A stretch of 39,601 nucleotides of DNA from Chiloscyllium plagiosum (GCF_004010195.1 NC_057718.1:101466629-101506229), one strand, 5' to 3'; positions 1,613-39,509 are shown, counted from the first letter of the stretch. Program-made: numbers and translations. The notes: generated by a model from the sequence alone, not told the origin.

Positions 1613-2935
1613 ATAAGAATAGTAACAGGAGCAGGCAATTCGGCCCCTCAAACCTGTTCCCCCATTTAATAGGATTGTGGCTGATTCAACATTCCTCACA
1701 TCCACTTTCCTGCTCTTTTCCCTTAACACTTTATTCCCTGACTGATCAAGAATCTATCTACCCAGCCTTAAATATATACAAGGACTTTACCCCCACAGCT
1801 CTCTGTGACAAGGAGTTCCAAAGACTCTCAACCCTCTGAGAGAAGAAATTCCTCCCCATCTCCGTCTGAAATTGGTGCCCCTTTATTCTGAGTCTGTACC
1901 CTCTGGTCCTAGCCTCTCCCATGAGGGGAAATGTCCTCTCAGTATTGACCCTGTCAAGCCCCTTAAGAATCCAATATGTCTCAATGAGATCACCTCTTAT
2001 TCTTCGAAACTTCAGTGAGTAGAATCCCAGCCAGTTTAACCTTTGCTTATAAGACAATCCCTCTCATACTAGGGATCATCCTCATGTACCTTCCCTGATC
2101 TGCCTCCAATTAATTATCTTTTTCTTAAATAAGAGGTCCAAAACTGTTCTCAGTACGCCAGACATGGTCTCCCAGCACCTTGTACAGTTGCAGTAAGACT
2201 TCCCCACTCTTATACTCCAGTCCCCTTGAAATGAGAACCAACATTTCATGAGCCTGCCTAATTACCTGCTGCACCTATGTGCTAACTTTATGTGTTTAAT
2301 GTACAAGTTCCCCCCCCCCCCCGTCCCTTTGTGTTGCAGCTGTCTGCAGTCTTTCTACATTTAAGTAATAATGTTCTTTGTTCTCCCTTCCAGAATGAAG
2401 AACTTCACATTTTCCCACATTATTCTCTACTTGCCAACATTTTGCGCACTCACTTAACCTATCAATATTTCCCTGTATGCTGTTTGTGTCCCACTCGTTC
2501 CTGATGAAGGGCTCCTGCACGAAATGTCGATTTTTCTGCTCCTCGGTTGCTGCCTGACCTTCTCTGTGCTTTTCCAGCACCACGCTCTCAACTCCCTCTC
2601 ATAACGTGCCTTTCACCTATTTTTGTGTCGTCTGCAAATTTGTTTACAGTACATTCACTTCCTTCCTCCAAGCCATTAATATGCATTGATGACAGTTGCG
2701 GTCTCAGCACTGATCCCTGTGGAACCCACTGGTTATGGGTCGCCAATTGGAAACGAACCCCTCCCTCTGACTCGCTGTTTCCTGCCCATCAGCCAATTCT
2801 CTATCCACGCCAATATACTACCTCCAACACCATGGGCTCATATCTCATGAAGAAACTTTTGGTGGGATCCCTTGTCGAATGCCTTCAGGAAGTCCAAATA
2901 CAACATATCTACTGGTACCCCTCTATCCACTGTGG
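1613..2935 (-). mobile_element. CR1-type LINE 3' fragment (family B), decayed
   Basis: ORF 1758-2057(-) MSYKQRLNWLGFYSLKFRRIRGDLIETY...RNFFSQRVESLWNSL, ORF 2296-2583 KCEVLHSGREN, and the family-B 3' UTR at 1613-1700. Confidence 0.88.
2497..2594 (+). mobile_element. Penelope-derived short repeat (family P1) with a degenerate hammerhead motif, inserted in a CR1
   Basis: ttcctgatgaagggctcctgcacgaaatgtcgatt...ccagcaccacgctctc matches the arms at 5293-5384 and 38381-38477. Possible TSD tcccactc/tccctctc. Confidence 0.8.
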
Positions 2936-2946
2936 TACATGAGTCT

Positions 2947-3166
2947 AACACAGAAAATGCTGGAGAAACTCAGCAGCACCTGAGAAGAAAGAAGCAGAGT
3001 TAATATTTCAAGTGCAGTATCACTCAGAGTACTAGAGAAAAGTCACACTGGACTCAAAACATTAACTCTGGTTTTCTCTCCACAGATGCTACCGAACCTG
3101 CTGAGTTTCTCCAGTGTTATCTGGAATCGTTTCAGATTTCCAGCATCTGAGGTACTTTGCTTTTAT
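2947..3166. mobile_element. Penelope-derived fold-back element (family P4), decayed hammerheads
   Basis: Inverted arms acagaaaatgctggagaaactcagcag...agagttaatatttcaagt versus ggactcaaaacattaactct...ctgctgagtttctccagt, followed by the extension ttcagatttccagcatctgagg. Confidence 0.75.
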
Positions 3167-3650
3167 GGGCATCGAAAGGTTCCTATCTGGATGCATCACA
3201 GCAATACTATGGCAACTGCTGTTCCCAACACTGCAAGACATACAGAGAGCTGTGAACTCAGCCCAGTCCATAAGGCAAACTAGCCTCCAATCCATTGGCT
3301 CCATCTATACATCCTACTGCCTTGGGAAAGCAACTGACATCATCAAAGATCCCTCCCATCCCAGTTATACTCCCTTCCACCATCTTCCATTGGGCTGAAG
3401 ATACAAACATTTGCATACACGTTTGAAGAGATTCAGGAACAGCTTCTTCCCCGTTGTTATCAGACTTTTGAATGGACCTCTTTAATATTAATGTTGATCT
3501 CTCTCTGCACCTTCTCGGCAGCTGGAACACCCCGTTCTGTTACCCTGCTGCACTTGTATAGCACCATCTGCCTGTAAAGCACATAAGACAGCACTTTTCA
3601 CTGTACCTTGCTACATGTGACTGTAACAAATCAAATCAAATCTAATCTAA
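3167..3650 (+). mobile_element. Rex1/Babar-type LINE 3' fragment
   Basis: Translates to IERFLSGCITA...QRAVNSAQSI...LGKATDIIKDPSHPSYTPFHHLPLG and RFRNSFFPVVIRLLN. The 3' UTR has cttttcactgtacct..tacatgtgac and an (aaatc)n tail. Confidence 0.8.
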
Positions 3651-3772
3651 TGCATCACCGATAGCCTGACATAATCACCATAGGTGAATTGGAGATGCTG
3701 GTGTTGGACTGGGGTATACAAAGTTACAAATCACACAACACCAGGTTATAGTCCAACAGGTTTAATTGGAAG

Positions 3773-3807
3773 CACTAGCTTTCGGAGTGTCACTCCTTCA
3801 TCAGGTG
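3773..3807 (-). ncRNA. Minimal type I hammerhead ribozyme motif (intact core)
   Basis: Minus strand reads CAC-CUGAUGA-A-GGAGU(GAC)ACUCC-GAAA-GC-UA-GUG, with helix I CAC/GUG, a 5-bp helix II and palindromic AGCU helix III. Activity is unproven. Confidence 0.7.
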
Positions 3808-4125
3808 GTTGTGGAGGGCACAATTGTAAGACACAGAATTTATAGCAAACGTTTACAGTGTGATGTAACTGAAATCATACATTGAAAAATACCTTGATTG
3901 TTTGTTAAGGCTCTCATCTGTTAGAATGACCATGATAGTTTCACTTCTTTCATATGTAAATCACAAAACGTTTTTTTAAAAGTTACATTCTCAGGTTAAC
4001 TGCTTTTAAAAAAAGATGAGAGCCTTAACAGACAAGCAAGGTATTTTTCAATGTATAATTTCGGTTACATCACACTGTAAACTTTTGCTATAAATTCTGT
4101 GTGTTACAATTGTGCCCTCCACAAC

Positions 4126-4160
4126 CACCTGATGAAGGAGTGGCGCTCCGAAAACTAGTG
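4126..4160 (+). ncRNA. Minimal hammerhead ribozyme motif (helix III palindrome mutated)
   Basis: CAC-CUGAUGA-A-GGAG(UGGCG)CUCC-GAAA-AC-UA-GUG. Confidence 0.55.
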
Positions 4161-4452
4161 ATTAGATTAGATTAGATTACTTACAGTGTGGAAACAGGCC
4201 CTTCGGCCCAACAAGTCCACACCGACCCGCCGAAGCGCAATCTACCCATACCCCTACATCTACCCCTTACTTAACACTACTGGCAATTTAGCATGGCCAA
4301 TTCACCTGACCTGCACATCTTTGGACTGTGGGAGGAAACCGGAGCACCCGGAGGAAACCCACGCAGACACGGGGAGAATGTGCAAACTCCACACAGTCAG
4401 TCGCCTGACTCGGGAATTGAACCCGGGTCTCTGGCGCTGTGAGGCAGCAGTG
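4161..4452 (-). mobile_element. HE1-type tRNA-derived V-SINE, young, slightly 5'-truncated
   Basis: Minus strand has the B box gggttcaattcc, the V-domain tgtgtggagtttgcacattctccccgtgtctgcgtgggtttcctccggg, a CR1-like tail and (taatc)n. It is flanked by agtg at 4157-4160 and 4449-4452. Confidence 0.92.
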
Positions 4453-5175
4453 CTTCCAATTAAACCTGTTGGACTATAACCTGGTGTATTGTGGTTTGTA
4501 ACCATAGGTGAAGGGCATTTTCCCAGAAGATAAGACCAGTAAAACTGCTAATGACATGTCCTGGTCTGGTCGCCTTTTATGCATCAGAATGAAGCTGTAG
4601 TGTGACCAGTGCATTCATCTCCAAGTGTTACTGGGTTTTTTTCAATGGATGTTTCTTCTGGGTTAGCAGTAACTTTGGGGAAAGTCATTTTGCAGAGTAA
4701 GGCCGGTGAACCAAAAGATTTTGCCATTTGATTGGCAATTGAATTTTTCAAGCTATTTTCAGGTATCCGTAAGTGACAGTCCTTTCCTTAATTTAAAAAT
4801 AAGTCATTCGAGCAGTTCAACACTGACTTTGAAATAATTAAGTACATCATAAAATTAATTCAGGTTCCAGATACATGGGCCTGACATTTTGATATATCTA
4901 AGTACAAGCCCATGGGATTGTAGCTGTCCACACAAAGTAATTATTTGAGACAAAACTGGTAATCACAGAAGTTAATTACATGTAGTGTTTAAATTAGTTT
5001 GATACGGTGAGTTTCAGATGGTCTAACTTTTACTGATAACGTGCATCATTTAAATGTTTGCAGTAGAAGTGACAAAAATATGTTGAATTAAACCATGTAC
5101 TTACATAGCATCATGACAAACATCCTTTCCAGGCTTTAATGTGCAAATTGTAGGGAACAAGGCAAAGAATGGCTG

Positions 5176-5384
5176 AGAGAAAGTGAGGAGTGCAGATGCT
5201 GGAGATGAGATTCGAGAGTGTGGTGCTGGAAAAACACAGCAGGTCAGGCAGCATCCGAGGAGCAGGCGAATCGATATTTCGGGCAAAAGGGTTTCCTGAT
5301 GAAGGGCTTTTGCCCGAACTGTTGATTCTCCTGCTCTTCGGATGCTGCCTGACCTGCTGTGTTTTTCCAGCACCACACTCTTGA
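5176..5384. mobile_element. Penelope-derived fold-back element (family P1)
   Basis: 5212-5289 is an inverted repeat of about 5307-5384. The plus arm has cctgatgaagggcttttgcccgaac (GAAA mutated). The left arm has about 35 nt extra. Confidence 0.85.
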
Positions 5385-6432
5385 TATCGTACTTACACCT
5401 TGCCACCAGAGGAGGTGCCCAAATGTTCCCACTAATGGATGCTGGTCCTGTAGTGTGACGTGTTTATACAATCAGCCTCCATTGTACATAGAGGTACGGG
5501 AATTGGCAACTGGAAAAGTCAGCAGGAAGATCTTATAGCGTATCAAGGACATTTTGAGATTTCAGCAAACACCCTTTTATTGATTAAATCCTGTTGCATT
5601 GACACGGGTTCACTATTGACATTAAATGTCATGCTCTGTCAGGAACTGATTGTTAATTGTTTCTATGAATCAGCGTGATGGAATGGACAACTCAGCAATT
5701 TCGCTCAAACTAACCACTCAGTTCCAGAGGAAATTGCCAGATTCCTGAAACTGATCTTCAAAGCTTGTCCTTTCTCTAGTGCGGTCGACCCAGCAGTGGC
5801 TGGATATTCTGAATGAATAAGCGTACACAGAAGTTTCAGGATTAACAATGTTCAGCAGTTCTCAAAGGAATGTTTCCAATATTCTGGGTCAATTCGGGGA
5901 ACAAGTTGGAAGGAGTCTGTGATGGGTCCCATGCCACAACATTGGCGTTTGCTTGAGAACTCCACTACCACCTACATTTAGCTCCTTTGAGATTCACAGA
6001 TGTTGGCACTGCTGAAATTATAATGAAGGGATTTACTCCATATGTAAGCAGAGATTAAGCACCTTGCATCTGAACATATTGATTTCCTTTGCCTACTGAA
6101 ACACAGACTATGGCTTGAATGAGCGAAGAATGGTATTGTAGGTTTCCTATACAATAGAATAATAATTTCATTTTAACACCAGGTTGACCTGCTTCAATCT
6201 CATTAATGAATTGATTTTTTTTTTGTTTAAACAATTTCAATATAAGCAGTTTTGTTTCACAAGTCGCAATTGTTAATTGAAATGCTTTGAGTTTTTTTAA
6301 ATGTTGAAGGTACGGTACAAGTTAAAGTTAGTGTTGAATTGTGCGCATCGCATAGAAATGTTAAAGGGGTCCTTCACTGTTAGTCCACATTTTAAAACTG
6401 GATCACCTTTATAAAGTCAGTGGATTTCTCCT

Positions 6433-6657
6433 TGTTCTGACTTAGCAGATGAGCATGGAGGCACTAACCACACACAATAGATTGGTTAACACGAGAACAT
6501 GTATGTTAATTTATTGAGGATTTGAGAAGTGTTACACAGGTGGAGAACTTGTTCACACGTCTGACACAGACTCAATAACTTTGTACATTAGATCATTTGC
6601 CAGCTAGCGATGTGTATCAAAAACAGAAGCATGCCCACTCAAAGGTACATCACAACA
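6433..6657 (-). mobile_element. Possible solo LTR
   Basis: Minus strand starts tgttgtgatg and ends gtcagaaca (TG..CA, imperfect terminal inverted repeat), with aataaa about 75 nt from the 3' end. No TSD seen. Confidence 0.35.
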
Positions 6658-6937
6658 ACAGCATCAACAGATTCTTGAGCCTCATAGTAACAGTACTGAG
6701 GAGGTACCACAAGGTGCAGTGGGGAAAGGCCACTGTCTGAGGTCATTCCACTAAAGTTAAATGACATTTGTTCAGTTATTGGACCCTCCTTGTGCTTCAA
6801 ATGCTTGTAAATATAATCTTGTGCAAGAGACACTTTTGGTTTTTTTGTTGGAAAGAGTCAAACTCCAGTGTTTGTTTGGTTCCTTGATATGCTATTGTAC
6901 AAAACCGAACTGCATTTGTGACCAAGTATACACAAAC

Positions 6938-7227
6938 ATAAGTATATAAGTTTGCTCGCTGAACTGGAAGCTTTGTTTTCAGACGTTTCGTCACCGTGAA
7001 TAGGTAACATCATCAGTGAGAGTTTCCTGGAAATGAGATCACCCACCTTAAGAAACCAAGACCTATAATTAGAGAGATGGGACATAGCACAAGGGCTTCA
7101 CCGGAGACTCTCACTGATGATGTTACCTAGTCATGGTGACAAAAGGTCTGAAAACAAACCTTCCAGCTCAGCGAGCTAACTTACATACTTATCATCAACC
7201 TGAACTATAAATCTTCTTAAAAATCGC
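6938..7227. mobile_element. Penelope-derived fold-back element (family P3), hammerhead on each strand
   Basis: 6938-7031 is an inverted repeat of about 7099-7192, with a 35-nt extension at 7193-7227. Degenerate TSD atacacaaacata (6928-6940) / atatacaaagata (7229-7241). Confidence 0.85.
6979..7019 (-). ncRNA. Minimal type I hammerhead ribozyme motif (intact core)
   Basis: Minus strand reads UCA-CUGAUGA-U-GUUACC(UAUUCAC)GGUGAC-GAAA-CG-UC-UGA, with a GUC cleavage triplet and palindromic ACGU helix III. Confidence 0.72.
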
Positions 7228-7339
7228 GATATACAAAGATATTTTTATGAATAACGTATGTTTTGAAATTAAAAAAAAGGACAGTGTCTATCCTGTTTGT
7301 CTGTCAGATGAGACTTTAAACCGAGATCCCAAACTGCTC

Positions 7340-8071
7340 AAAAACAAGAAAACAAGTTGCTGGAGAAACTCAGCAGATCTAGGAGAAAGTGAGGACGGCA
7401 GATGCTGGAGATCAGAGTCAAAGGTGTGGTGCTGGAAAAGCACAGGTCAGGCAGTTTTCGAGGAGCAGGAGAGTTGACGTTCCAAGCATGAGCTCTTCAC
7501 CAGGAATGGTGAAATCAACATTGACGCCGTGTATTTGGAGGGTCCAAAGGCGGAAGATGAGGAATTCTTCCTCAAGGCGTCAGATGGCTAGAATTTGGCG
7601 GTGGAGGAGGCACAGGTCTTGCATGCCCTTGACAGAGTTGGAGAAGGTGTTAAAGTGTTCGGTCACAGGGTGGTGGGGTTGTTTAGTACGTGTGTCCCAG
7701 AGATGTTCTCTGAAACGTTCTGCAAGTTGGCGTCCTGTCTCCCCTATGTAGAGTAGACCACATTGAGAGCATTGGACACAGTAGATGAGGTGTTTGGATG
7801 TGCAGGGAAATCTCTGCTGGATGTGGAAGGATCCTTTGGGGCCTTGGATGGAGGTGAGGGGGGAGGTGTGGGCTCAGGTTTTACACCTCTTGCAGTGGCA
7901 GGGGAAGGCGCCGGGACTGAAGGGTTAGTGGGGCGGGGTGCAGCATGGATCTAGCGAGGTGGTTGTGGAGGAAGTGGTCTCTGCGGAATACTGAAACTCA
8001 GCAGGTCTGGCAGCATCCGTGGAGAGAGAAACAGAGTTAACGTTGTGAGTCCAGTGATGCTTCTTCAAACT
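7340..8071 (-). mobile_element. Penelope-derived repeat (family P4), split into 7340-7380 and 7993-8071
   Basis: gttgctggagaaactcagcagatct ... gaaactcagcaggtctggcagcatccgtggagagagaaacagagttaacgttgtgagtccagtgatgcttcttca, flanked by ctgctc at 7334-7339 and 8072-8077. Confidence 0.78.
7381..7992 (-). mobile_element. 5'-truncated Penelope-like element (Neptune-type): GIY-YIG endonuclease remnant plus P1 terminal repeat
   Basis: Manual minus-strand translation gives PGAFPCHCKRCKT*AHTSPLTSIQGPKGSFHIQQRFPCTSKHLIYCVQCSQCGLLYIGETGRQLAERFREHLWD. It is followed by a decayed hammerhead (cctggtgaagagctcatgcttggaacgtc). 16-bp TSD at 7365-7380 / 7993-8008 (15/16). Confidence 0.9.
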
Positions 8072-8530
8072 CTGCTCTCCCAGTTCAACATAATCATTCT
8101 CATCTTGCTATTTAGGTGAAGGGCTAATTAAATCCTCCATGAATCCTACAACAATGCTTATCTTCTGTCACCATCCTAACAAACAGATCATTCTGTCATT
8201 ATCACAGTGCTTTTAGAGGGAGCTGTTCACTGTGTTTTCTACATTGCAACAATTACAACAGTTGAAAAATATTTTATCGACTTCTGGTGATTGTGAAAGG
8301 TGCTATAGAAATTCATAAGAAATCAGAGCAGGAGTAGACCATCTGGACCATCTACTCTGCCTTTCCATAAGATTGCGGGTTTTTTTCAGGGTTATTTTTA
8401 CTGTTTGCAAAAATACTCACGAGCTGACAAAACACTGCTTTCCTGATTGAAACTGTACAACTGCTGAAGCCTACCCTGCAGCCAATACTTTCCTTCTTTG
8501 AGCTCCTCACACTCTTCACCCTCGATTAAG

Positions 8531-8750
8531 GGAGAAAGTGGGGACTGCAGATCCTGGAGATCAGAGACGAGAGTGTGGCGCTGGAAAAGCACAGCTGGTC
8601 AGGCAGCATCTGAGGAGCAGGAAAATTGATGTTTCAGGCATAAGCTTTTCGTCAGGAATTGAAGAGCTAATGCTTGAAACGTCGGCTCTCCCGCTCCTCG
8701 GACACTGCATGATCGGCTGTGCGTTTCCAGTGCCACGCTTTTTCACACTC
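8531..8750. mobile_element. Penelope-derived fold-back element (family P1), decayed
   Basis: ggagaaagtggggactgcagatcctggag...gtttcaggcataagcttttcgtcagg, then the inverted arm tgaagagctaatgcttgaaacgtcggctctcc...ccagtgccacgct. Confidence 0.78.
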
Positions 8751-8927
8751 CAATAAGGAGTGACTTGATTGGGTTTGCACACTTATAAATCGGATTGTGG
8801 AGCAATTGTTTGTGGAGAAACAAAAGATTGATATCTTCCACTTTACCGTATCAAATATTTGATATCTGAGTGAATAAAAATAAAACTATTTTGGAAATGA
8901 AAACAGAAATCTTTCCTTATCTTGCAG

Positions 8928-9001
8928 GCTTTCCTCAGGACGATGCAGCTGAGATCGCGGTGTCGACTGTGAAAGAATGGCTGACTGAGAAACAAGCTTT
9001 G
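8928..9001 (+). CDS. MACROD2: Internal coding exon of a macrodomain ADP-ribose glycohydrolase (MACROD2-like; MACROD1 not excluded)
   Basis: Acceptor ctttccttatcttgcag, donor G|gtatgt, 74 bp, phase 1 to 0. It encodes (G)FPQDDAAEIAVSTVKEWLTEKQAL, which aligns without gaps to recalled human MACROD2 GFPNEPAAVIALNTIKEWLAKNHHE and MACROD1 GYPCEAAAEIVLATLREWLEQHKDK. Long flanking introns favour MACROD2. Confidence 0.85.
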
Positions 9002-9871
9002 GTATGTAATGTTTGTATGTTCCTCGGGAGAATTTGACCAGCGAACTATCAAACTGCTTTACATCATGGGTCGATTGTTTTGTGAATTGAGTTCTGCATT
9101 GGCTGAACCCAGCGTGGTTACTGAGCTTGAGACCTTTAGTGGTCAGTCCTAGCGGGGAGTTTACCAAATGAATTCTGAAGTGGTTACATTGAAGAGTCTT
9201 TCGGTCATCAATCTTAGAGGTAGGCGCCCTCGGGTGTTAAGTGATTGAAGTGTAATGCGAGGAGGTTAAACTCTATGGCCTAATATTCGTTTTTGTTATC
9301 AAATAACAGTCCCTATTGGATTACCCAACCCTCAAAAAAGCAGTAGATAAGAATTTAGCCTCTTTTGTCTTTAACTTAAAGCCAAGTGATTGTGTGCAAT
9401 TCTTCTTTCATCCCTGGTTATTGAGGAGCCTCATTATTTCTGACATTTGCTCTGTTGAACTGTACCCTGAGATCAAAGTGATCCCAGGCTTGTGTCCAAG
9501 CATTGCAGCTCTTTATTTAGAATGCGCATTCTGTAACAGAACTATTTCCGTAGTGGTTTGCAAGTGGCTCCCTTCACCCACCGTGAGTAAAGAGCCAAGT
9601 GAGTATTTTGCAGCTGATGTTGGTAATGCGCCAAGGATTGCAACGGTCATGTTCTGAACCGAGAGACAGTGGAGAAACATGATCATCGTCTCCCCTTCTG
9701 ACCCCGTTTCTCAGTTTCTTAGACCAGGCCGCTGGATGTTAGGTGAAGGATGGAAGAGGCAACATTGGCGAGACGTCTGCTGCGTGGCCTGTTACTTCGT
9801 TGATGCTTACATCTGAGCTGAGGTGGGATTTCCACCAGTTATTGTTCGCATCTGATGAAATGGACACTCCA

Positions 9872-10700
9872 AACAAAAAATGCTGGAGATCGCAGCAGGT
9901 CAGGCAGGATCCATGGAGAGAGAGCAAGCTTACATTTCGAGTCTCAGATGACTCTTCATTAGAACTGATGTGAAATGTGGAGGGGACAGTATTTATGATA
10001 TAGTGGAGGAGTTGGGATTGGAGTGCGAGGCGAATAAAGATGTTGGTAGTTGAAATTAATGGGAATGTGAGAATGGCAGAATAATGGTGTGTCTAACTGC
10101 CAGACTGGAAAGAACAGACAGTCCCAGTGGAGTGGGGGAGAGGGAAGAAAGGACTCGGTGACAGAGAATGGAGCAAGTAAAGCTAAATGAAAGGGAAGGA
10201 ATGGGAATGGGTTCACAATCTGTCGGTGTTGATCTCCGTATTCAGTCCAGAAGGTTGTAGAGTGCCCAGTCTGAAGATGAGATGTTGTTCCTCCAGTTTG
10301 TGCTGTGATTCACTGTGGAGCACTGCAGCATACCCAGGACAGGGCGGGCATGCGAGCAGGACACTGTGTTAAAATGACCGGCTACAGGAAGGTCGAGGTC
10401 GTGCTTGCGCACAGACTGGAAGTGTTCTGCAAAGCAGTCACCCGGTCTGCGTTTGGTTTCTGTAATGTGGAGTAGGCCACATTGGCTGCAGCGAATACAA
10501 TACACAAGATTAGAGGAGGTGCAGGTGAAATGTTGCTTCGCCTGGAGTGACTGTTTAGGCCCTTGGATAGTGAGCTCGGATGAAGAGGCATTTAGAGTCA
10601 AAACATTAGCTTGCTCTCTCTCCGATGCTGCCTGACCCGCTGTGATCTCCAGCATTTGTTGTTTTCAGTACTGATTCCAGCATCGGCAGTGATTTGCTCC
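9872..10700 (-). mobile_element. 5'-truncated Penelope-like element with a GIY-YIG remnant and inverted terminal repeats (P4-related)
   Basis: ORF 10242-10655(-) QGPKQSLQAKQHFTCTSSNLVYCIRCSQCGLLHITETKRRPGDCFAEH..PVAGHFN. Arms 9872-9967 and 10573-10664 are inverted, each with a decayed hammerhead. TSD gaaatggacactcca (9857-9871) / gaaatgggcactcca (10701-10715). Confidence 0.9.
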
Positions 10701-11646
10701 GAAATGGGCACTCCATTTCTGCTTAGTAACTCGCTGATCACCCAAATGGACCTAAGTAATGTGTCTGATGAAAGATCCCAAGATCAAGAATCCTATCTAT
10801 CAGTTTATAGCACTAATAAAGGTCCCAGAGTGTTTGCATGCACCTTCCCTCAATGTGACTATGGAATAAGTTGCAGTCTGAAGACATGTTGACAGATCTT
10901 CAGAAAAGATTTGTTCCCGTGTAAACAGTTTAGCAAAGAGAGATGCTGTCTGTTTGCACGATGGTTTCACCAGTCTATATAACATGTCACTTGTGCATTG
11001 AAAAACATGTCAAAGGTCCATAAGGGACACTTGAACTGAATCTAATTAGGATCAGATGTTTGCACTGGTTCAGACAGCTCCAGAATGAATTTAATTCCGA
11101 GTTAATCCTGTAATTGCAAGGATGCCTTTTCAAATCAGATTCACTTTGATTTATGCAAATTCATAACAATTAGTTGGCTCTGCTTAATTTAGATTGACTG
11201 TTAATTCTAGTAAGCTTTAATCACCAGCCTGCAGCTAAATGATTTATGCTATTGTGCCAGACTCTGAATTACAGCTATTTATTTCATTTGCAACTTGCGA
11301 AGATTTACACAGAGCCCTTCGTTGAGTTTTCTTTTTGGATTCACCTTTAGCTGCTCTGGAGACTCTGCACTGATTCCTGTTTAGTGACTGAAGAAGGAAT
11401 ATACTGTTTTAAAATTGACCAGAATGTATACACTGGCCTCTTCCTTATCCCTTACATGTCCATAGACAATCAGTTACACAATGCAATTTCAATGCAGTGG
11501 AGGGAAATTACAATCCCAATGAAATCTCAATGCTTTGGGAAAACAATGGTGATGTGGGACTGAATGATGGGAGACCAGGTCCTTGCCCATGCAGAATGAG
11601 ATGATGGATTTTCTTTGTTGAGTTTAGCTGTATAGAATGCCATAAA

Positions 11647-12033: not shown

Positions 12034-12565
12034 ATTTTTGATTCGATTTGATTTATTATTGTCACATGTACTGAGATACAGTGAAAAGTATTGTTTTGTG
12101 TGCTGTCCAGTCAAATCATACCTTACATAAGTACATCAGGGTCATAGAACAGAATGCAGAATATAGTATTACAGCTACAGAGATAGATCAACCTAATATA
12201 TATGAGAGGTCTGGTCATAAGTCTGATAACAGTGGGGAAGAAGCTGTTCTTGAATCTGTTGGTACATGTTTTCAAACTTTTGTATCTTCTACCCGATGGA
12301 AGAGGGTGGACGAGAGTGTAACCGGGGTGGGAGGGATCTTGGATTAAGTTGGCTGCTTTTCCAAGGCAGCAAAGAATATAGGCTTCATTACCACATGCCA
12401 ATCCCTCTAGTGGAGGGAAGGCTGGTTTTCGCGATGGACTGGGTCTGGACTGTGTTCAGATCTCTCTGTAATTTCTTGCGGTTTTGGGCAGAGCAGTTAC
12501 TATAGTGAGCTGTGATGGACCCAGAAAAGATGCTTTCTGTGATGAATCTGTGACAATTGGGAAGG
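12034..12565 (-). mobile_element. Rex1/Babar-type LINE 3' fragment
   Basis: ORF 12123-12401(-) CLGKAANLIQDPSHPGYTLVHPLPSGRRYKSLKTCTNRFKNSFFPTVIRLM, 3' end catgtgacaataataaatcaaatc. Homologous to 3167-3650. Confidence 0.82.
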
Positions 12566-14205: not shown

Positions 14206-14227
14206 GAATTGGAATAAGTAGATCTCT

Positions 14228-26740: not shown

Positions 26741-26945
26741 AACTCTCACTTTCATTGTTAGTCTGTTCTCAGTTTGTAGATGCAGAAGAAATGATCACAT
26801 TTGCCCCTCCTATATCCCGATCTATTTATGCTGCAACCTTTGATTGACAAAAGGTACTTCTTGGTTGCATTGAAAAGCTCACTAATTAAGTCGTATAATT
26901 TCCAAACTAATCTTTGATTTATTTACGGGATGTGGGTTTTGCAGA

Positions 26946-28384
26946 ACAGTGGTTAGGCCACTTTTGGAATACTGCATTCATTTCTGGTCTCCTTGCTGCA
27001 GGAAGGATGTTGTGAAACTTGAAAGGGTGCAGAAAAGATTTACGAGGATGTTGCAAGGGTTGGAGGATTTGAGCTACAGGGAGATGCTGAATAGGCTGGG
27101 GCTGATTTCCCTGGAGGGTCGAAGGCTGAGGGGTGACCTTATAGAGGTTTATCAAACCATGAGAGGCTTTACCAATAGGGTGAATAGCCAAGGTCTTTTC
27201 CCCAGGGTAGTGGAGTCCAAACCTGAAGGGCATAGGTTTAAGGTGAAAGGGGAAAAATTTAAAAGGGACCTCAGGGGCAACATTTTCACACAGACGGTAG
27301 TGTGTATATGGAATGAGCTGCCAGAGGAAATAGTGGAGGCTGGTACAATTATAACATTTAAAAGGCATCTGGATGGGTGTATGAATCGGAATGGTTTAGA
27401 AGGATATGGGCCAAGTGCTGGCAAATGGGACCAGATTAATTTAGAATATATAGAGTTTTTTGAAGAAGGTACAAAGAGGGCAGTGTGATGGATGTGATCT
27501 ATGTGGACTTCAGTAAGGCATTCAACAAGGTTCCCTATGGGAGACTGGTTAGTTCTCATGGAATACAGGGAGAACTCGCCATTTGTATACAGAACTGGCT
27601 CAATGGTAGAAGACAGAGGGTGGTGGTGGGGGCTTGTTTTTCAGACTGGAGGCCTGTGACCAGTGACCAGTGGAGTGCTGGATCCACTACTTTTCGTCAT
27701 TTATATAAATGATTTGGATGTGAATATAAGAGGTTTGTAGTAAGTTTGCAAATGACACCAAAATTGGTGGTGTAGTGGACAGCGAAGAAGGTTATCTCAG
27801 ATTACAACAGGATCTGGACCAGATGGGCCAATGGGCAGAGAAGTGGCAGATGGAGTTTAATTCAGATAAATGCGAGGTGCTGCATTTTGGGAAAGCAAAT
27901 CTTAGCAGGATGGATACACTACAAGGGTGTTGCCAGGATTGGAGAATTTGAGCTACAGGGAGAGGCTGAATAGGCTGGGGCTGTTTTCCCTGGAGCGTCA
28001 GAGGCTGAGGGGTGATCTTACAGAGGTTTAAAAAATCATGAGGGACATGGATAGGATAAATAGACAAAGACTCTTCCCTGGAGTCGGGGAAACCAGAACT
28101 AGAGGGCATAGATTTAGGGTGAGAGGGGAAAGATATAAGAGAGACCTAAGGGACAATTTTTTCACATGAGGATGTTATGTGTATGGAATGAGCTACCAGA
28201 GGATGTGGTGGAGGCTGTTACAATTGCAACATTTAAGAGGCATTTGGATAGGTATATGAATAGGAAGGGTTTGGAGGGTTATGGACTGGGTGGTGGGACT
28301 AGATTGGGTTGGGATATCTGGTTGGCATGGATGGGTTGGACTGAAGGGTGTATTTCTGGGCTGTACACCTCTATGACTCTGTAA
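26946..28384 (+). mobile_element. Two CR1 family A fragments in tandem (about 26946-27450 and 27451-28384)
   Basis: ORF 26949-27488 runs VRPLLEYCIHFWSP..GKWD and then jumps back to IEFFEE. The second copy has DVIYVDFSKAFNKVP, a deletion near 27915 and the tail tctatgactct. Confidence 0.9.
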
Positions 28385-28404
28385 CTATGAAATCAGAATC
28401 AATT

Positions 28405-28743: not shown

Positions 28744-29039
28744 CCCCTGAAATACAAGGACAATGGGATGCCACAATGTCAACTACTCACTGTCCCTATG
28801 ATGAATGACCTCTTATTCTCATCTCCCCTATCCTTCATCTGTTTATTTTCTCCTGCATTCTTCCATGGTCCTCATCACACTTTGCCTTGTCCTTAATTTG
28901 CTTTCACCATTAAATTTCGAGATTGCTTCCTCCCACTATCCTAAATTCAGATCATTCACATGCATTCAGACGAGCCTTGCTGCGTGTTTTCAATCCGAGA
29001 GATACTTATGCAGATTCGCTTGGTAGTGCAGAACTTGAA

Positions 29040-29220
29040 TATTTCTGAAAAGAGAGACACTTTGCCAAAGCTTTTCCTCTCGCGATCATCAGGACACATG
29101 CGAGAATTCCAAATCTCAAACAATCAGAACAATTGATACCACAGGAGAGGAGTGCTGGCTGGTTGGCAAGCTAACACTGATTGGTCAAGATGTTCCCATG
29201 GAGCAAGCAACAATGAATCT
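29040..29220 (-). mobile_element. Possible further hammerhead-bearing repeat (family P5), degenerate
   Basis: Minus strand 29096-29063 reads UGUC-CUGAUGA-UCGCGAGAG-GAAA-AGCU-UU-GGCA. Confidence 0.45.
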
Positions 29221-29377: not shown

Positions 29378-29838
29378 GGACGGCACGATGGCTCAGTGGT
29401 TAGCACTGCTGCCTCACAGCCCCAGGGACTTGGGTTCGATCCCAGCCTCTGTGTGGAGTTTGCATGTTCTCCCCATGTCTGTGTGGGTTTCCTCTGGGTG
29501 CTCCGGTTTCCTCCCACAATCCAAAAGATTAGGTGACATGGCTATGCTAAATTGCCCAGTGTTCAGGGATGTGCAGGTTAGGTGCATTAGTCAGGGGTAA
29601 ATGTAGAGTAATAGGGTAGGGGAATGGGTCTGGGTGGGTTACTGTTTGGAGGGTCGGTGTGGGCATGTTGAGCTAAAGGGCTTTTGCCTGAAACGTCGAT
29701 TTTCCTGCCCCTCGGATGCTGCCTGACATGCTGTGCATTTCCAGCACCACTCTAATCTAGTCTCTGATTTCCATCATCTGCAGTCCTCACTTTTGCCTTG
29801 TTGGGCTGAAGGACTTGTTTCCACACTGTCGGGATTAT
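29378..29838 (+). mobile_element. HE1-type V-SINE interrupted by a P1 repeat (29677-29798)
   Basis: ggacggcacgatggctcagtggttagcactgctgcctcacag, gggttcgatccc, V-domain. Insert agggcttttgcctgaaacgtcgatt...cagtcctcactttt. Duplication at 29666-29683 / 29799-29816 (15/18). Confidence 0.88.
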
Positions 29839-30929
29839 ATGTCCTTCCTACCCAGGGTACGAATGCTGTTGCGAGTATGACACCCACCCAACACCTAGGA
29901 TTGAGGAGAGGCCCAGAAGCAGTCAGCGATGTTGGGAGGGAGGTCATGGAGGATGCTTGAGGAGGGGAGTTCCTCTCCCTGATGCTGGGTTGCTCGATTG
30001 GTCGCTCAGTATGTTTGAACAAGGTTTCTGTTCCAAGATCTCCAAACTAATATGCCAGGGTTTGTTTATCTGATTCCTCGCACAGTGAGTTCACTATCTA
30101 TCGCTGGGTTAATATTCACAATAATTATCCACTGAAGCACCCCATTGGGTAGCGAGGCAAGGAGACCATCCATGGGCTCTCTCCTAATCAACCTAATGAA
30201 GGTAGGAGTGGGGTCTCCATTTCTCACCCTCCTGCCTGGTTTAAAAGCACACCCTGTTATCCACACGCCAAGTGGGAGGTCACAGGTTTCCACCCATTGG
30301 CCCTGTTACTCTCCACACTTGCTGCCTGACATGCTGAGGCTTCCCAGGATCTTCTGCATGCACGGCACTCGTTTTGGGGCAGTTTCATTCTGTGTGAGTT
30401 CCCCTTATGAAGGGTGACCTTCCAACACTCAAGGAACAACCTCAGAATCCCTCCTGTCAGGCTGGAGGGACAGTCGGGGGAGGAGCGAGAGTTGAATAAG
30501 GTTTCAAAACCCAGACCCCGCACCCCCCACCAGGGCCTCGGTGGCATTTTTCAGAAGACCCTAAACTCAGGCTCCACTGTCAGTAGGAACCTCTGGCAGA
30601 CTGTAACTGACACACTTTTGAGTATTACGTTACAGTTTCCAGTGGATGGTAGAGATAGGTAGTAGGATTTCAAGACGTTATTGTGATTGGCTGCGATCAG
30701 AAAGATCAGGTGTTTTCTTGGAGATACGCTTGTCCAGTATTTCAGCTTGGCAGGTTTACTGTGCAGGATGTCAGCACCATAGGCTTGAGTGAACAGGTAT
30801 TTGCCTATAAGAGTCTTACTGGGGCAGAGTGACAGGCTCCTGATTTCCGAAAGATGTTTTCATGCAACAGTTCGCCACTCGATTATTTTATTCACCAGTT
30901 TGATTTAGAAGCATTCATCAAAGAAACAG

Positions 30930-31060
30930 AGTGCTCTGATAAAGGGTCATTGAACCTGATATGTCGACTCTGTTTTTCTCTCTCCCCAGACCTGCTGAGT
31001 TTCTCCAGCAATTTCTGTTTTTGTTTCAGATTTCCAGCCTCTGCAGTTCTTTGGTTTATT
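30930..31060 (+). mobile_element. Penelope-derived repeat (family P4), decayed hammerhead
   Basis: ctctgataaagggtcattgaacctgatatgtcgactctgtttttctctctccccagacctgctgagtttctccagcaatttctg...tttccagcctctgcag. Confidence 0.72.
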
Positions 31061-31126
31061 CCAGAGTCCCCCTCATACTTGACTTTTCCCCTTCACTGGA
31101 GGCTAACTGTCTCCATTTAATGATAA

Positions 31127-32845: not shown

Positions 32846-32945
32846 GAACAAAAATAGAAATTGCAGGAGAAACTCAGCAGGCCTGGCAGTGTCTTTGGAG
32901 AAAGCAGTGTTACTGTTTTGAGTCCAGTGACGCTTCTTCAGAACA
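32846..32945 (-). mobile_element. Penelope-derived repeat (family P4), decayed hammerhead
   Basis: Minus strand gttctgaagaagcgtcactggactcaaaacagtaac...ctgctgagtttctcctgcaatttct. Confidence 0.72.
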
Positions 32946-34026: not shown

Positions 34027-34165
34027 AAATCATAGAATCCTTGCAGTGTGGAAGCAGGCCATTCAACCCATTGACTCCATACCAACCCTCTGAAGAGGAT
34101 CCTACCCAGACCCACCTTCCTACCCTGCCCTCCTGCATTTGCCATGACTAATCCACTTAACGTGG
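34027..34165 (-). mobile_element. HE1 SINE 3' fragment
   Basis: catagaatccttgcagtgtggaagcaggccattcaaccc..accaaccctctgaagaggatcctacccagaccc. Confidence 0.7.
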
Positions 34166-35400: not shown

Positions 35401-36050
35401 TAGGAAGATAGATACAGGAGTAGGCCATTCAGCCCTTCGGGCCTGCTCTAGCATTCAATAGGAACATGGCTAATTGAACATCTTTCACCCGCACGTCCCC
35501 ATGACCTTTTACTCCATCAATAATCAAAAATTTATCAAACGCTACTTTTTAATCCCTCAGTTCTGCGGAAGGGTCACTGAACCTGAAATGTTAACTCTGA
35601 TTTCTCTCCATGGGTGGTGCCAGACCTACTGAGCTTTTCCAGCAATTTCTATTTTTGTTAGTACTTTATAAACATACTCAAAGACTAAGCTTCCCGGTCT
35701 GTCAGGGATCGAAATTTGCAAGGAATCACAACACTCTGAGTAAACAAACTTCTCCTAAGCACAGTCCTCGATAGATCTCCTTTACGGTTCACTGGTGCTC
35801 TTGGCTCGAGAATCCATAACCAGGGGAAATATCTTACCCTGACTATCCCTTTAAGAGTTTTGTAGACTTTAATGAGATCCCCTCTCCTTCAAGTCTGGTA
35901 AACTCCTCCCAATGACAATCACATCTTTCCCGAGAGAAGGAGACCAAAACTGCACACAGGTACAAGGCCCGACACAATAAAGCAAGACATCACTACTCCT
36001 GTACTCAAAATCCTCTTGTGATAAAAGGGAACATTTCATTTACCTTCCTA
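35401..36050 (-). mobile_element. CR1 family B 3' fragment containing a P4 repeat (35559-35659, +)
   Basis: caggagtaggccattcagcccttcgggcctgct tail, ggagaccaaaactgcacacag, and the insert agttctgcggaagggtcactgaacctgaaatgttaactctg. Confidence 0.72.
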
Positions 36051-36051
36051 A

Positions 36052-36958
36052 AGGGCAGTGAGGGGGATGGAGTCCCAGAGAGGGGGTCAGTGAGGGGGAT
36101 GGAGTCCCAGAGAGGGGGGCAGTGAGGGGGATCGAGTCCCAGAGTGGAGGACAGTGAGGGGGATCGAGTCCCAGAGTGGGGAACAATGAGGGGGATCGAG
36201 TCCCAGAGTGGGNNNNNNNNNNNNNNNNNNNNNNNNNNNNNNNNNNNNNNNNNNNNNNNNNNNNNNNNNNNNNNNNNNNNNNNNNNNNNNNNNNNNNNNN
36301 NNNNNNNNNNNNNNNNNNNNNNNNNNNNNNNNNNNNNNNNNNNNNNNNNNNNNNNNNNNNNNNNNNNNNNNNNNNNNNNNNNNNNNNNNNNNNNNNNNNN
36401 NNNNNNNNNNNNNNNNNNNNNNNNNNNNNNNNNNNNNNNNNNNNNNNNNNNNNNNNNNNNNNNNNNNNNNNNNNNNNNNNNNNNNNNNNNNNNNNNNNNN
36501 NNNNNNNNNNNNNNNNNNNNNNNNNNNNNNNNNNNNNNNNNNNNNNNNNNNNNNNNNNNNNNNNNNNNNNNNNNNNNNNNNNNNNNNNNNNNNNNNNNNN
36601 NNNNNNNNNNNNNNNNNNNNNNNNNNNNNNNNNNNNNNNNNNNNNNNNNNNNNNNNNNNNNNNNNNNNNNNNNNNNNNNNNNNNNNNNNNNNNNNNNNNN
36701 NNNNNNNNNNNNNNNNNNNNNNNNNNNNNNNNNNNNNNNNNNNNNNNNNNNNNNNNNNNNNNNNNNNNNNNNNNNNNNNNNNNNNNNNNNNNNNNCCCGG
36801 AGTGGGGGGCAGTGAGGGGAATGGAGTCCCAGAGAGAGGGGGGGGGGGGGAAATGAGGGAATGGAGTCCTGAAGTGGGGGCAGTGAGGGGAATGGAGTCC
36901 CAGAGGGGGGGATAGTGAGGGGAATGGAGTCCCGGAGAGGGGGAAAGTGAGGGGAAGC
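36052..36958 (+). repeat. G-rich minisatellite, about 31-32 bp unit, spanning an N gap (36213-36795)
   Basis: Unit cagtgagggggat(g/c)gagtcccagag(a/t)gggg repeated about 5 times on each side of the gap, with a gggaatgg variant on the right. Confidence 0.92.
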
Positions 36959-37081
36959 AGTCCTGGAGAAAACGTTCCTTGGAATAGCTGAGTGCGGAGC
37001 GGACTGGAGGCTTGGAGCAGAGCAGGGATTGCTGTTGGCCTGGGGTCTGGCGCGGGTGGGGAAGCCCCTGCACTGAGCTAC

Positions 37082-37287: not shown

Positions 37288-37734
37288 GATATTTTACCCC
37301 CCACACTACCACCTGACTGTGGTAGTCCTTATTTTTCCCCAGCAACCATATCGTGTGTGTGCAGGTGTCAGACACAGTGAAAAACAATAAGTATGTAAAT
37401 CTTTATTTATATTCCACCACCAGGAAGAAAGGAATATAAAGGATATTCTATTCTGTTCTAATAACCTGCAGCACTTCAGTGACATGTTGACAAGGATTTC
37501 TAAATTCTTTGCTACATCTATGTTTTCCAGCTTTTCACGGACAGAGTTGTGTTTAAATTGCCTGGAAAAGCCCCAGCGAGTGCTGACAGTTTCTGATAGG
37601 CAGATTCCCAGTTGTGATCCACTGTCAGCACCCTCCAGTCTATGTAAATTGATGGACATACTGCACATTCATTGTGAGTGGTGTCACAATATCGTTACTG
37701 GACTAGTAAGCCTGGAGCTCCTGTATTTCCCAGG

Positions 37735-38150
37735 CAGGATGCTGTGTGGCTTGGAGAGGAACTTGTGGTGTTGTTTTTTCCCATGTATCTGCTGTTCTTG
37801 CCCTTTGTGGTTGAGGGGGTTGGAAGAAACTGTGGACAGTGGGTTGAGAAATCACTGCAAGTGCCTCTTGTAGATTACATGGTGCAGCTACTGTGCATCA
37901 TTGCTGAATGTTGAAGATGGTGGTAGAGTGAATGTTTGTGGATGGATTGTCAATCAAGTGGACACCTTTGTTGATGGTGTCAAGCTTCTTGAGTGTTGTT
38001 GGAGTTGCCCCCATCCAGGGCAAGTGGGGAGTATTCCATCACACTCCTGACTTGTGCTTTGTAAATGGTGGGCAGGCTTTGGGGAGTCAGGAGGTGCAGC
38101 AATCCCAGCTTCCAACCTGCTCTTGTAACCACAATATATACTTGGCAGGT
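37735..38150 (-). mobile_element. LINE fragment (family Z)
   Basis: ORF 37980-38171(-) HLLTPQSLPTIYKAQVRSVMEYSPLAL. Confidence 0.75.
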
Positions 38151-38340
38151 TTGTCTAATTTCTGTCACCATTGGAAGAAATTAGGCTCCCATTTTTAATT
38201 CTTGCAATGGTCGATAGGTGCCTTCTTTTCTTTTATCATAGACCCTCTCGCCAGCGGATCAGAAAATTCTTGACCCGAGGCAGCATTGCCTAATTGAATG
38301 TTCGATAATAGTCGAGATTAGCGTGGTGCTGGAGCAGGAA

Positions 38341-38375
38341 AATCAACGTTTCGGGCAAAAGCCCTTCATCAGGAA
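38341..38375 (-). ncRNA. Minimal hammerhead ribozyme motif (intact core)
   Basis: Minus strand reads UUC-CUGAUGA-A-GGGC(UUUU)GCCC-GAAA-CG-UU-GAUU. Helix I is very short. Confidence 0.62.
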
Positions 38376-38380
38376 GCCCA

Positions 38381-38415
38381 TTCCTGATGAAGGGCTTTTG
38401 CCCGAAACATCGATT
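38381..38415 (+). ncRNA. Minimal hammerhead ribozyme motif (helix III CpG-decayed)
   Basis: UUC-CUGAUGA-A-GGGC(UUUU)GCCC-GAAA-CA-UC-GAUU. Confidence 0.5.
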
Positions 38416-39509
38416 TTCCTGCTCCTCAGATGCTGCCTGACCTGCTGTGCTTTTCCAGTACCATTCTAATCTCGACTCTGGTTTCCAGCATCTGCAGTCC
38501 TCACTTTCACCTGTTCGCCTGTTCGGTAATAGTGTTTGTCGTGAATTTTTACCTCTCTTGCCTTGCACAGTCCATTTCACCGGTGTGTTGAACCCAGAAC
38601 CTGGCACATTAATACTAATTTGGCACTAACTTTACAAAGATGGCATTTAAAAAGCAGGGTGACTCCTGGATATAGCCAGAGACACTTTTTGTTAATAATT
38701 TATTGACGTATTTGAAAGGACAGTATTAAAGGAACTACTAAGTGAAAACACTAAGTGCGATTTTTCTTAACGTGATGAGTAATTAAGCTGTGATTTGTGT
38801 GATAATTGCGCCCTTTGTTATAAAAGCATCATTAATACGTGTGGAGTGCTATGCTGCAATACCACACGGATCAAGTTTATTTTGCTGTCTGATGTGTACA
38901 TACCTGTTTGTGAAATGAATAATAGCAGCTGCCAGACTTTGAGTGCCATTTAGTTTTGCTGTACACCTGCTGTAGCACCTCAGGTAATGTATCAGCAAAG
39001 TGCGACAATGCTGTTGAAAGCTGAAAGCGAGACACACCAGCACATTCTGTCTCTCCGTCTCTCTCGCTGCTTGCTGGGACTTCATTAGAGAGTTAACCTT
39101 TTGCAATTTAGAATGCTGCTGTTTCAGCTTCACTTCCAAGGATGCTGAAGTCACCCCTTTTCATGTTAACATTTAGACCCGTGCAGATGCCACTTGTTTT
39201 GAACAGCTAACAAGCCTGGGGTTTTCACTCGTGCCTTTTTTTTCAATGCAAGTTGACTCGCTGGCATTTGTGCTTTGCGGCTGAACCCAGTCGGATACTT
39301 TCTGGAAAAATCCGTGTTATGCTAATTCAGTCAAAGGCAACATTGCAGGATTAGTGAAAAGGAAATAAGAGACGCCTCCTCCATTTGTGATTTCTGGTTT
39401 CCTCACTCTCTGAGTGGAGCAATTCATCCTCAGCTCGGGGCTGCCCCCTTGTTCTGAGAGTGGGACCTGTGGGCTGAATGGAAGGAGCTGCTGTGGTATC
39501 TGCCTCACA

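Follow-up and report, generated by a model that had tools for sequence, protein, structure and literature searches.

Short Penelope-like end-pieces with minimal hammerhead motifs in a MACROD gene of the bamboo shark

Results

Repeat families and their location

The repeats scattered through a stretch of 39,601 nucleotides of Chiloscyllium plagiosum DNA (GCF_004010195.1 NC_057718.1:101466629-101506229; here called the window) are short, mostly decayed end-pieces of Penelope-like elements (PLEs) with a small hammerhead motif. Sequence comparison supports their assignment as putative remnants of PLE 3′ terminal repeats with minimal type I hammerhead motifs. The arrangement has been described in other animals since 2014 and is real but ordinary; as a catalogue entry, the window extends minimal PLE hammerheads to the bamboo shark and leaves the concept unchanged.

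Family profiles run over the window identify 14 insertions with 21 hammerhead-bearing arms (P1, 9; P2, 2; P3, 2; P4, 8), matching the "about 14" repeats of an earlier note on this DNA. Seven of the 14 insertions are head-to-head pairs and seven are solo arms. They are clustered, with 9/14 located within 2.5-10.7 kb and none found by the four profiles between 10.7 and 29.6 kb. The note had put the density at roughly one copy per 3 kb and expected a very large genomic complement; even spacing is not seen, and the complement is supported for P1 by read depth. It had also counted four to five families, of which four hold; the fifth is one decayed, unconfirmed copy that fails a 2-bp helix II test and has no second copy in the window.

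The host gene is MACROD, as proposed, but the region is not a single intron, since a host exon divides it into two. Shark MACROD proteins match this exon letter for letter, and a zinc-macrodomain gene, the top solved-structure match, was rejected as host on that ground.

Host exon
8928-9001, +: MACROD2-like exon, 74 bases

P1
2497-2594, +: solo stub with perfect core boxes and a broken helix II, within a CR1-type LINE remnant
5176-5384, both strands: head-to-head pair, junction inside the hammerhead, tail on the - arm
7381-7992, -: tailed copy that carries a GIY-YIG remnant and landed in a P4 stub; target duplication 15/16 (7365 and 7993)
7508-7945, -: GIY-YIG endonuclease remnant, abutting the hammerhead without a 3′ spacer
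8531-8742, both strands: head-to-head pair joined at the CUGA box, - arm tailed
29676-29798, +: solo stub truncated within the CUGA box, with a SINE as its insertion site; target duplication 12/14 (29666 and 29799)
38313-38519, both strands: head-to-head pair, + arm tailed; target duplication 13/14 (38299 and 38520)
38342-38375, -: minimal hammerhead with an intact core, a helix I of 2 bp, helix II GGGC/GCCC and the ACGU palindrome
38381-38414, +: minimal hammerhead, core perfect, palindrome lost through a CG-to-CA change

P2
3689-4500, both strands: head-to-head pair, tail on the - arm, + arm broken by a SINE at about 4161-4447; 12/12 target duplication at 3677 and 4501
3773-3807, -: minimal hammerhead, fully intact, CAC/GUG, GGAG/CUCC, AGCU palindrome
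4126-4160, +: minimal hammerhead, core perfect, palindrome lost

P3
6938-7229, both strands: head-to-head pair, tail on the + arm
6979-7019, -: minimal hammerhead, fully intact, UCA/UGA, GUUACC/GGUGAC, ACGU palindrome

P4
2947-3163, both strands: head-to-head pair, decayed, tail on the + arm
7342-7380, -: 3′ part of a stub split off by the P1 insertion
7993-8070, -: 5′ part of the same stub, with a decayed hammerhead
9872-10700, both strands: head-to-head pair around a 3′ spacer and a GIY-YIG remnant, + arm tailed; target duplication 14/15 (9857 and 10701)
10216-10571, -: frameshifted GIY-YIG remnant, with the P4 hammerhead about 250 bases further downstream
30925-31062, +: solo stub with tail, GGGUC-type helix II, decayed
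32851-32945, -: solo stub, decayed
35553-35661, +: solo stub, GGGUC-type helix II, one core mismatch

Other
30311-30349, +: P1/P4 downstream-motif fragment lacking a hammerhead, outside the 21 arms
about 29069-29095, -: possible fifth family, CUGAUGA...GAAA, 6-base palindrome, no sound helix II

The hammerhead motif

A strict descriptor (all 12 core positions, helix II of at least 4 bp, helix I of at least 2 bp) finds 5 motifs in the window and 0 in each of 60 dinucleotide shuffles. When helix I is required to have at least 3 bp, there are 3 motifs against 0 in 40 shuffles, and with one core mismatch allowed, 11 motifs against a shuffle mean of 0.27 (maximum 2); 9 of these 11 fall in the P1-P4 families and 2 in no family. 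The motif occupies the same position within each repeat family. All four families fit the consensus given for minimal PLE hammerheads in PMC4209133 (CUGANGA/GAAA/UH, an extra base before helix II, the G10.1-C11.1 pair and a palindromic linker).

The three intact cores that had been singled out, at 3773-3807(-), 6979-7019(-) and 38341-38375(-), are confirmed and are the only 3 of the 21 arms to combine a perfect core with both helices and the palindromic linker. The core is not invariant among copies, as had been claimed: 7/21 arms are free of core mismatches, 9/21 have one or two, and 5/21 are cut or too decayed to score. None of the 8 P4 arms has a perfect core. The earlier helix assignments are correct, with helix II being GGGC/GCCC in P1, GGAG/CUCC in P2, GUUACC/GGUGAC in P3 and GAGUC/GACUC-like in P4. 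Helix I has 3-4 bp in P2, P3 and P4; that of P1, previously left unlisted, is UUC/GAU, with two contiguous pairs followed by U.U. The linker reads ACGU or AGCU in the three intact arms; CG decay has removed it in most others (the linker CG is changed in 6/18 cells), and the P4 palindrome is seen in decayed forms only.

Double changes between P1 and P4 preserve pairing at 5/9 pairs (two related groups, 12 of the 17 P1/P4 arms used). The P1/P4 cells are paired in 74%, as compared to 12-49% for slid partners, and 0/500 shuffles reach 74%; the count of doubly changed pairs is reached by 101/500 shuffles. The covarying helices of the earlier note are an overstatement: putative covariation rests on few lineages, and the double changes come mainly from P1 versus P4. 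Copies decay about neutrally, and the P1 core shows no excess conservation (non-CpG changes 3/73 in the core versus 21/247 downstream, p=0.31). Six of the seven pairs were folded as + strand RNA, and all are predicted to form long arm-to-arm hairpins (-76 to -259 kcal/mol). For the P1 monomer, the lowest-energy prediction departs from the hammerhead fold.

Relationship to Penelope-like elements

The PLE terminal-repeat reading of the earlier note is upheld by the GIY-YIG remnants, the published consensus, and the signature of tail, inversion and target duplication. The two remnants reported to adjoin repeats, in P1 (7508-7945) and P4 (10216-10571), are both present and tie these families to PLEs. 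Pfam matches GIY-YIG at 7583-7873 (E 4e-5) and does not detect the P4 remnant; tblastn with shark RT-GIY-YIG proteins matches both (E 2e-50 and 4e-17). The linker of the P1 remnant reads C-x4-C-x2-(stop), which is Neptune-like, and the extra-cysteine motif is complete in homologs P0002-P0004. The Neptune clade is described as having an additional cysteine motif in the linker that precedes the endonuclease (PMC8557442). In the P4 remnant, the linker region is cut away and the Neptune-like placement is by similarity only. The reverse transcriptase has been lost from the copies in the window; in homologs P0001 and P0002, RT-like sequence lies upstream. No ORF remnant lies beside P2 or P3 within the window, so their PLE identity rests on the motif, the tail and the inversion, to which P2 adds a target duplication.

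Insertion anatomy

In most units, truncation has left arms of 90-140 bases. In 7/7 head-to-head pairs, one arm is longer by about 30-45 bases (the tail), and pair centres vary from copy to copy. Clear target duplications of 12-16 bases flank 5 of the 14 insertions (12/12, 14/15, 13/14, 15/16 and 12/14); for the other 9, none was found, with 2 showing shorter or mismatched candidates. In P1 and P4, 16/17 arms begin about -10 to +11 from the first base of the core, which is the front edge of the hammerhead and not the cut site. We found no published description of such a front-edge start. There are no tandem hammerhead units in the window; of its six tandem-repeat rows, none lies over these repeats.

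Abundance and reads

The read comparison covered the window up to 10800, P2 excepted. Reads recruited by P1 reach about 10^5 times the depth of single-copy sequence, with very deep ORF bins as well (112,610 and 275,277 in run X1). The depth suggests that the bamboo-shark complement is among the largest known. The insertion at 8028 is common to a second organism with 2-3% divergence, and those at 5356, 8560 and 8714/9900 are probably shared with it as well. Flanks before 5293 are unlike one another in 826 and 912 contigs (agreement 0.35 and 0.34). The host exon is covered by RNA reads. In RNA run X21, 98% of 5,006 reads run on into unlike sequence, and no pile of molecule starts or ends is seen; cleavage and start sites are poorly captured by a poly(A) single-cell library such as this one.

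A 19-base motif common to P1 and P4 is absent from the viral contigs searched and occurs at 48 loci in metagenome contigs. The 48 loci were rejected as chance matches: 0/48 have an upstream hammerhead core, and the profile matches barely exceed the motif.

Discussion

Proposed origin

We consider it highly probable that the repeats are 3′ end-pieces of four PLE families with a minimal type I hammerhead, which likely inserted themselves and are likely inactive today. Insertion would have used the element's own endonuclease and reverse transcriptase. By analogy with published work on a lizard element, the protein would nick the target and begin the cDNA downstream of the hammerhead, at either of two adjacent internal sites, with the tail included or not; two such start sites (PMC11167929) would account for the tail. 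Copying would run towards the 5′ end of the RNA, with P1 and P4 copies usually stopping at the hammerhead front edge, and a second, untailed copy would often be joined in mirror image. In the parent elements, the ACGU/AGCU palindrome may have served to pair the hammerheads, which would have cut weakly, either as dimers or when assisted by protein.

More tentatively, and on balance doubtfully, the RNA of the Neptune-like families might start at the hammerhead front edge, in which case the stubs would be complete strong-stop copies joined in pairs by a dimeric enzyme. If so, the ribozyme would sit at the very 5′ end of the RNA, and one step of the Penelope transposition cycle would be preserved in about 10^5 or more dated insertions. 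Were P1 and P4 copies to stop at the front edge because the RNA begins there, shark genomes would hold a very large natural record, with which one could test how PLEs make tails, inversions and terminal repeats, and what role the ribozyme plays.

The same front-edge starts would also suit short P1/P4 units that form a non-autonomous family of their own, SINE-like or retrozyme-like, whose transcription would begin at that edge and which would be mobilised in trans. The many contigs with unlike flanks before 5293 agree with this, as does a 2026 preprint deriving animal retrozymes from PLE terminal repeats (bioRxiv 10.64898/2026.07.22.740005). We regard such a family as unlikely, because tandem units are absent from the window, P1 and P4 are also joined to GIY-YIG remnants, the ORF bins are themselves very deep, and pair centres differ between copies; the missing pile of RNA ends points the same way as a weak test.

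Miniature inverted-repeat DNA transposons, with the hammerhead match as inherited debris, would explain seven insertions with long inverted arms, several of them with target duplications. This origin is very improbable and largely refuted: the arms are asymmetric in 7/7 pairs, the centres vary, seven arms are solo, the duplications vary in length (12-16 bases), and one pair encloses a GIY-YIG remnant.

It is equally improbable that the MACROD pre-mRNA contains active hammerheads that influence how it is processed. The + strand arms at 2501, 4129 and 38384 retain a perfect core, RNA reads cover the exon, and the antisense orientation of 3/3 fully intact motifs could reflect selection against sense cutters. 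However, the palindromic linker is lost in all three + strand arms, 2501 also lacks helix II, 4129 and 38384 lie within predicted arm-to-arm hairpins, an orientation of 3/3 arises by chance 1 time in 8, and the P1 core is not conserved in excess. No cutting is expected in the pre-mRNA because the three intact motifs are antisense and the paired arms are predicted to fold together.

Chance matching of the motifs is refuted by the shuffles, the constant position in each family and the pairing-preserving double changes, even though an Rfam search at E up to 10 gives nine matches with none of a hammerhead family and two one-mismatch matches lie outside the families.

Comparison with known systems

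Minimal hammerheads in the terminal repeats (pLTRs) of metazoan PLEs were described by Cervera and De la Pena in 2014 (PMC4209133). The shark motifs share with those the type I core, the extra base, the G-C closing pair, the palindromic 2-base linker and the short helix I. The elements are also alike in having several families per genome, truncated elements mostly as solo copies, and opposite-strand pairs 100-700 bases apart. The 2014 paper puts solo copies in the thousands. The alignment in that paper (56 motifs, 40 species) has no cartilaginous fish, whereas the families here are from a shark. Its counts of about 4,000 (coelacanth) and 9,000 (Xenopus) are descriptor hits and not comparable with the summed P1 depth of ~10^5.

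Endonuclease-bearing (EN+) PLE insertions are described with an inverted 5′-truncated copy, a tail of 30-40 bases at one end and a target duplication (Arkhipova et al. 2013, PMC3846280; Craig et al. 2021, PMC8557442). The shark insertions resemble them in having arms joined head to head, a tail on one side, a target duplication that encloses the complete unit and insertion into other PLE copies, and differ from those described in these papers in their short arms (90-140 bases) and in the P1/P4 junctions at the hammerhead front edge.

The anole Poseidon element PAc (Frangieh et al. 2024, PMC11167929) likewise has two neighbouring 3′ ends downstream of the hammerhead. According to that report, its enzyme nicks and extends both strands; its hammerhead needs protein in order to cut, and insertion in vitro does not require the hammerhead. 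PAc belongs to a clade other than that of the Neptune-like P1 and P4, and the shark families are known from sequence alone.

Non-LTR retrozymes (Cervera and De la Pena 2020, PMC7229834; Li et al. 2026, bioRxiv 10.64898/2026.07.22.740005) are, like the shark repeats, short and non-coding, with type I hammerheads related to PLE terminal repeats (PMC7229834). As described there, they are defined by tandem head-to-tail units and have canonical hammerheads, whereas the window has solo and head-to-head arms with minimal ones. The preprint of Li et al. lists retrozymes in one chondrichthyan. This one-species count is all that we found on shark PLE hammerheads in the literature; supplements, Repbase or Dfam may name shark families.

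An initiator-like word, TCAGTT, lies just upstream of the core in two P4 copies, and TCACT overlaps the P3 core. As a sign of a transcription start they are a weak hint, being short and noticed post hoc, and P3 arms do not stop there. In fly Penelope, the intron end that meets helix I is about 120 bases downstream of the start.

Census of hammerhead-bearing repeats

P1 to P4 are four families of short Penelope-like element (PLE) end-repeats, each copy, or arm, carrying a minimal type I hammerhead. A census by BLAST and with profiles made from the window's own copies gives 14 insertions with 21 arms (P1, nine; P2, two; P3, two; P4, eight), in line with the roughly 14 repeats counted in the earlier note. 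The repeats span about 3.8 kb (9.7% of the window's called bases). Nine insertions lie within 2.5–10.7 kb, and these profiles find none between 10.7 and 29.6 kb. The core is perfect in seven arms (none of them among the eight of P4), has one or two mismatches in nine, and is cut or too decayed to score in five, so that the invariant core claimed earlier holds for seven of the 21 arms. Core, both helices and palindromic linker occur together in only three arms, 3773–3807(-), 6979–7019(-) and 38341–38375(-), exactly those that had been named as intact. P4 comprises two types, GAGUC/GACUC and GGGUC, and both 3' strands are seen genome-wide in the loose ends of mapped reads. Four of the proposed four to five families stand; the remaining candidate is the first of the following features.

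~29069–29095 (-), region 29000–29140: single decayed motif, with CUGAUGA and GAAA boxes and a palindrome of 6 bases, no sound helix II
30311: fragment without a hammerhead, additional to the 21 arms

The decayed motif does not pass a check for helix II and occurs only once in the window; it may be a fifth hammerhead family.

The motifs exceed chance. A strict descriptor, which requires an error-free 12-position core, four or more pairs in helix II and three or more in helix I, matches three times in the window and never in 40 dinucleotide shuffles; when the minimum for helix I is lowered to 2 pairs, there are five matches against none in 60 shuffles. Permitting one core mismatch as well gives 11 matches against a shuffle mean of 0.27. 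Nine of these fall in the repeat families; the other two, 37235(-) and 14569(-), are probably chance. None of the window's nine weak Rfam matches is to a hammerhead family.

Penelope identity and insertion anatomy

Two insertions, one of P1 and one of P4, run on upstream into GIY-YIG remnants, which bears out the earlier assignment to PLEs.

7508–7945 (-): GIY-YIG remnant beside P1 (Pfam GIY-YIG, E 4e-5)
10216–10571 (-): GIY-YIG remnant beside P4 (shark-protein match; missed by the Pfam GIY-YIG scan)

Shark proteins spanning RT-like sequence to GIY-YIG match both (E 2e-50 and 4e-17, respectively). The P1 remnant carries a cysteine linker, described in PMC8557442 as a mark of Neptune-type elements. 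P1 and P4 have a common downstream motif after the hammerhead; no ORF remnant adjoins P2 or P3 in the window. Head-to-head pairs make up seven of the 14 insertions, each with one arm ~30–45 bases longer than the other (the tail). Target duplications are clear at five insertions (12/12, 14/15, 13/14, 15/16 and 12/14) and absent or doubtful at the other nine. The P1 copy with the GIY-YIG remnant is nested in the downstream motif of a P4 stub, a short solo copy (7342–8070; duplication 15/16). Pairs, tails and duplications match the PLE anatomy of inverted truncated copy, one-sided tail and target duplication (PMC3846280; PMC8557442).

PMC4209133 (2014) reports genomes with several hammerhead families, solo copies in the thousands and pairs on opposite strands. 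All four families fit its minimal-hammerhead consensus; its alignment contains no cartilaginous fish. A 2026 preprint (Li et al. 2026, 10.64898/2026.07.22.740005) gives counts of hammerhead retrozymes and of PLEs for one chondrichthyan, and PLE expansion in whale-shark introns is published (10.1101/443036). The papers searched contain no description of the P1–P4 shark families. The observation is real and was correctly read, and P1–P4 belong to an already described type.

Helix pairing and decay

The pairing alignment holds 12 of the 17 P1 and P4 arms; of the five omitted, three are truncated P1 arms and two are P4 arms in advanced decay. When the sequences are fitted to the hammerhead helices, 74% of 100 cells are paired; shuffles give 68% (0/500 reach 74%) and slid partners 12–49%. 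Both sides have changed at five of nine pairs, a count that 101/500 shuffles reach. These double changes mostly divide P1 from P4, and the covariation therefore amounts to two or three lineages; the covarying helices claimed earlier were overstated. Non-CpG changes in P1 number 3/73 in the core and 21/247 downstream (p=0.31), so that core retention is not significantly better, and the linker CG is altered in 6/18 P1 cells. P1 helix I has just two contiguous pairs, and folding prediction gives the P1 monomer a lowest-energy structure other than the hammerhead. The hammerhead structure appears to have been under selection in the parent elements, with the window copies decaying.

The 5' boundary

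In 9/9 P1 and 7/8 P4 arms, scored by eye, the upstream start of the arm, or 5' break, falls between roughly -10 and +11 relative to the first base of the core. The predicted cut site is ~28 bases downstream of that base, apart from the break. In the P1 copy with an ORF, the ORF end joins straight to position -5; the P4 copy has a ~250-base spacer. Before 5293, the flanks disagree in 826 and 912 contigs (agreement 0.35 and 0.34), compared with 0.58–0.79 where family sequence runs on in mapped contigs. The window copy itself starts at this place, so the unlike flanks support a front-edge boundary and do not amount to a distribution. Against one simple rule, P2 and P3 arms reach further upstream, mapped depth is high over the ORF bins, and the 5,006 mapped RNA reads (poly(A) single-cell library) show no pile-up of RNA ends. 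Either P1/P4 RNA starts at the hammerhead's front edge, which we consider doubtful, or the polymerase stalls on the hammerhead structure. The P1/P4 front-edge boundary is the one feature for which the published literature searched holds no match.

Abundance and age

Reads of four runs were mapped on 5100–10800 at 80% likeness. At P1 position 5216, summed depth is 853,677 against 4.68 at unique sequence in run X1, and 1,955,471 against 16.3 in run X11; the ratio of 1–2 x 10^5 is an order of magnitude only, not a copy number. Ratios at P3 (6998) and P4 (9945) are a few hundred, old copies recruiting poorly. Contigs from a second organism, 2.3–3.4% different, reach 29–43 bases into elements at 5356, 8028, 8560, 8714 and 9900. 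Bridging needs 31 bases, exceeded at 8028 only; that insertion is common to both organisms, and three further ones are likely to be.

Host gene and fate in host RNA

The window's source is a bamboo shark of the Chiloscyllium type. The 25 residues encoded at 8927–9001 recur unchanged in two macrodomain proteins of Chiloscyllium, and MACROD2-named proteins in five of the remaining shark records are similar to them; MACROD1-like is the name given in two records. Against solved structures, the exon peptide matches human MACROD2 (E 0.0013) and MACROD1 (E 0.24).

8928–9001 (+): host MACROD exon, 74 bases, bounded by AG and GT

This exon places the repeats in two introns, not in the single MACROD intron assumed earlier. 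No other 6-residue word of a 385-residue homolog occurs in any frame of the window. Intronic sequence at 9540–9587 serves as the last exon of the predicted Chiloscyllium protein P0007 (14/16 residues identical); the peptide is missing from full-length homologs, and this exon is likely a gene-model artefact.

In the anole element (PMC11167929), the protein nicks both strands and cDNA synthesis begins downstream of the hammerhead, at two adjacent internal sites; this hammerhead needs protein in order to cut and is dispensable for insertion in vitro. By analogy, the shark protein would nick both target strands and cDNA would begin at two such sites, which would yield arms with and without a tail. 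Minimal hammerheads probably act as dimers that form via the palindrome, and their activity in vitro is weak (PMC4209133; review PMC6765202). Cutting of MACROD pre-mRNA by the window hammerheads is unlikely, because the three intact motifs are antisense, the three sense arms with a perfect core have no palindrome, and the six pairs that were folded give long predicted hairpins. The intact hammerheads (3773–3807, 6979–7019 and 38342–38375) are all antisense to the host gene, each with a sense partner that has no palindrome; 3/3 is not significant.

Other repeats in the window

The remaining repeats include several putative SINE copies and many RT-bearing LINE remnants, several of them nested and presumably CR1-like.

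4161–4447: SINE with short tandem tail, inserted three bases past the point where the P2 + arm is predicted to be cut
~25142–25437: fuller copy of this SINE
near 14215–14470, 23459–23710 and 29382–29830: further SINE copies
29–1291, 20359–22100 and 26886–28385: LINE remnants with RT (Pfam RVT_1 at 728–1291 and 20359–20973)
36053–36970: G-rich minisatellite, 32-base unit, present on either side of an assembly gap of 584 bases
3200–3640 and 12060–12520: related repeats, one inverted relative to the other (80% across 172 bases)

A short repeat at 7230–7282, directly after the P3 tail, has a near-AATAAA signal and an A run; AATAAA at 7255 is restored in 28/28 and 2/2 RNA reads, and the repeat probably represents the 3' terminus of a further retroelement. 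The repeats at 3200–3640 and 12060–12520 are ends of another retroelement family.
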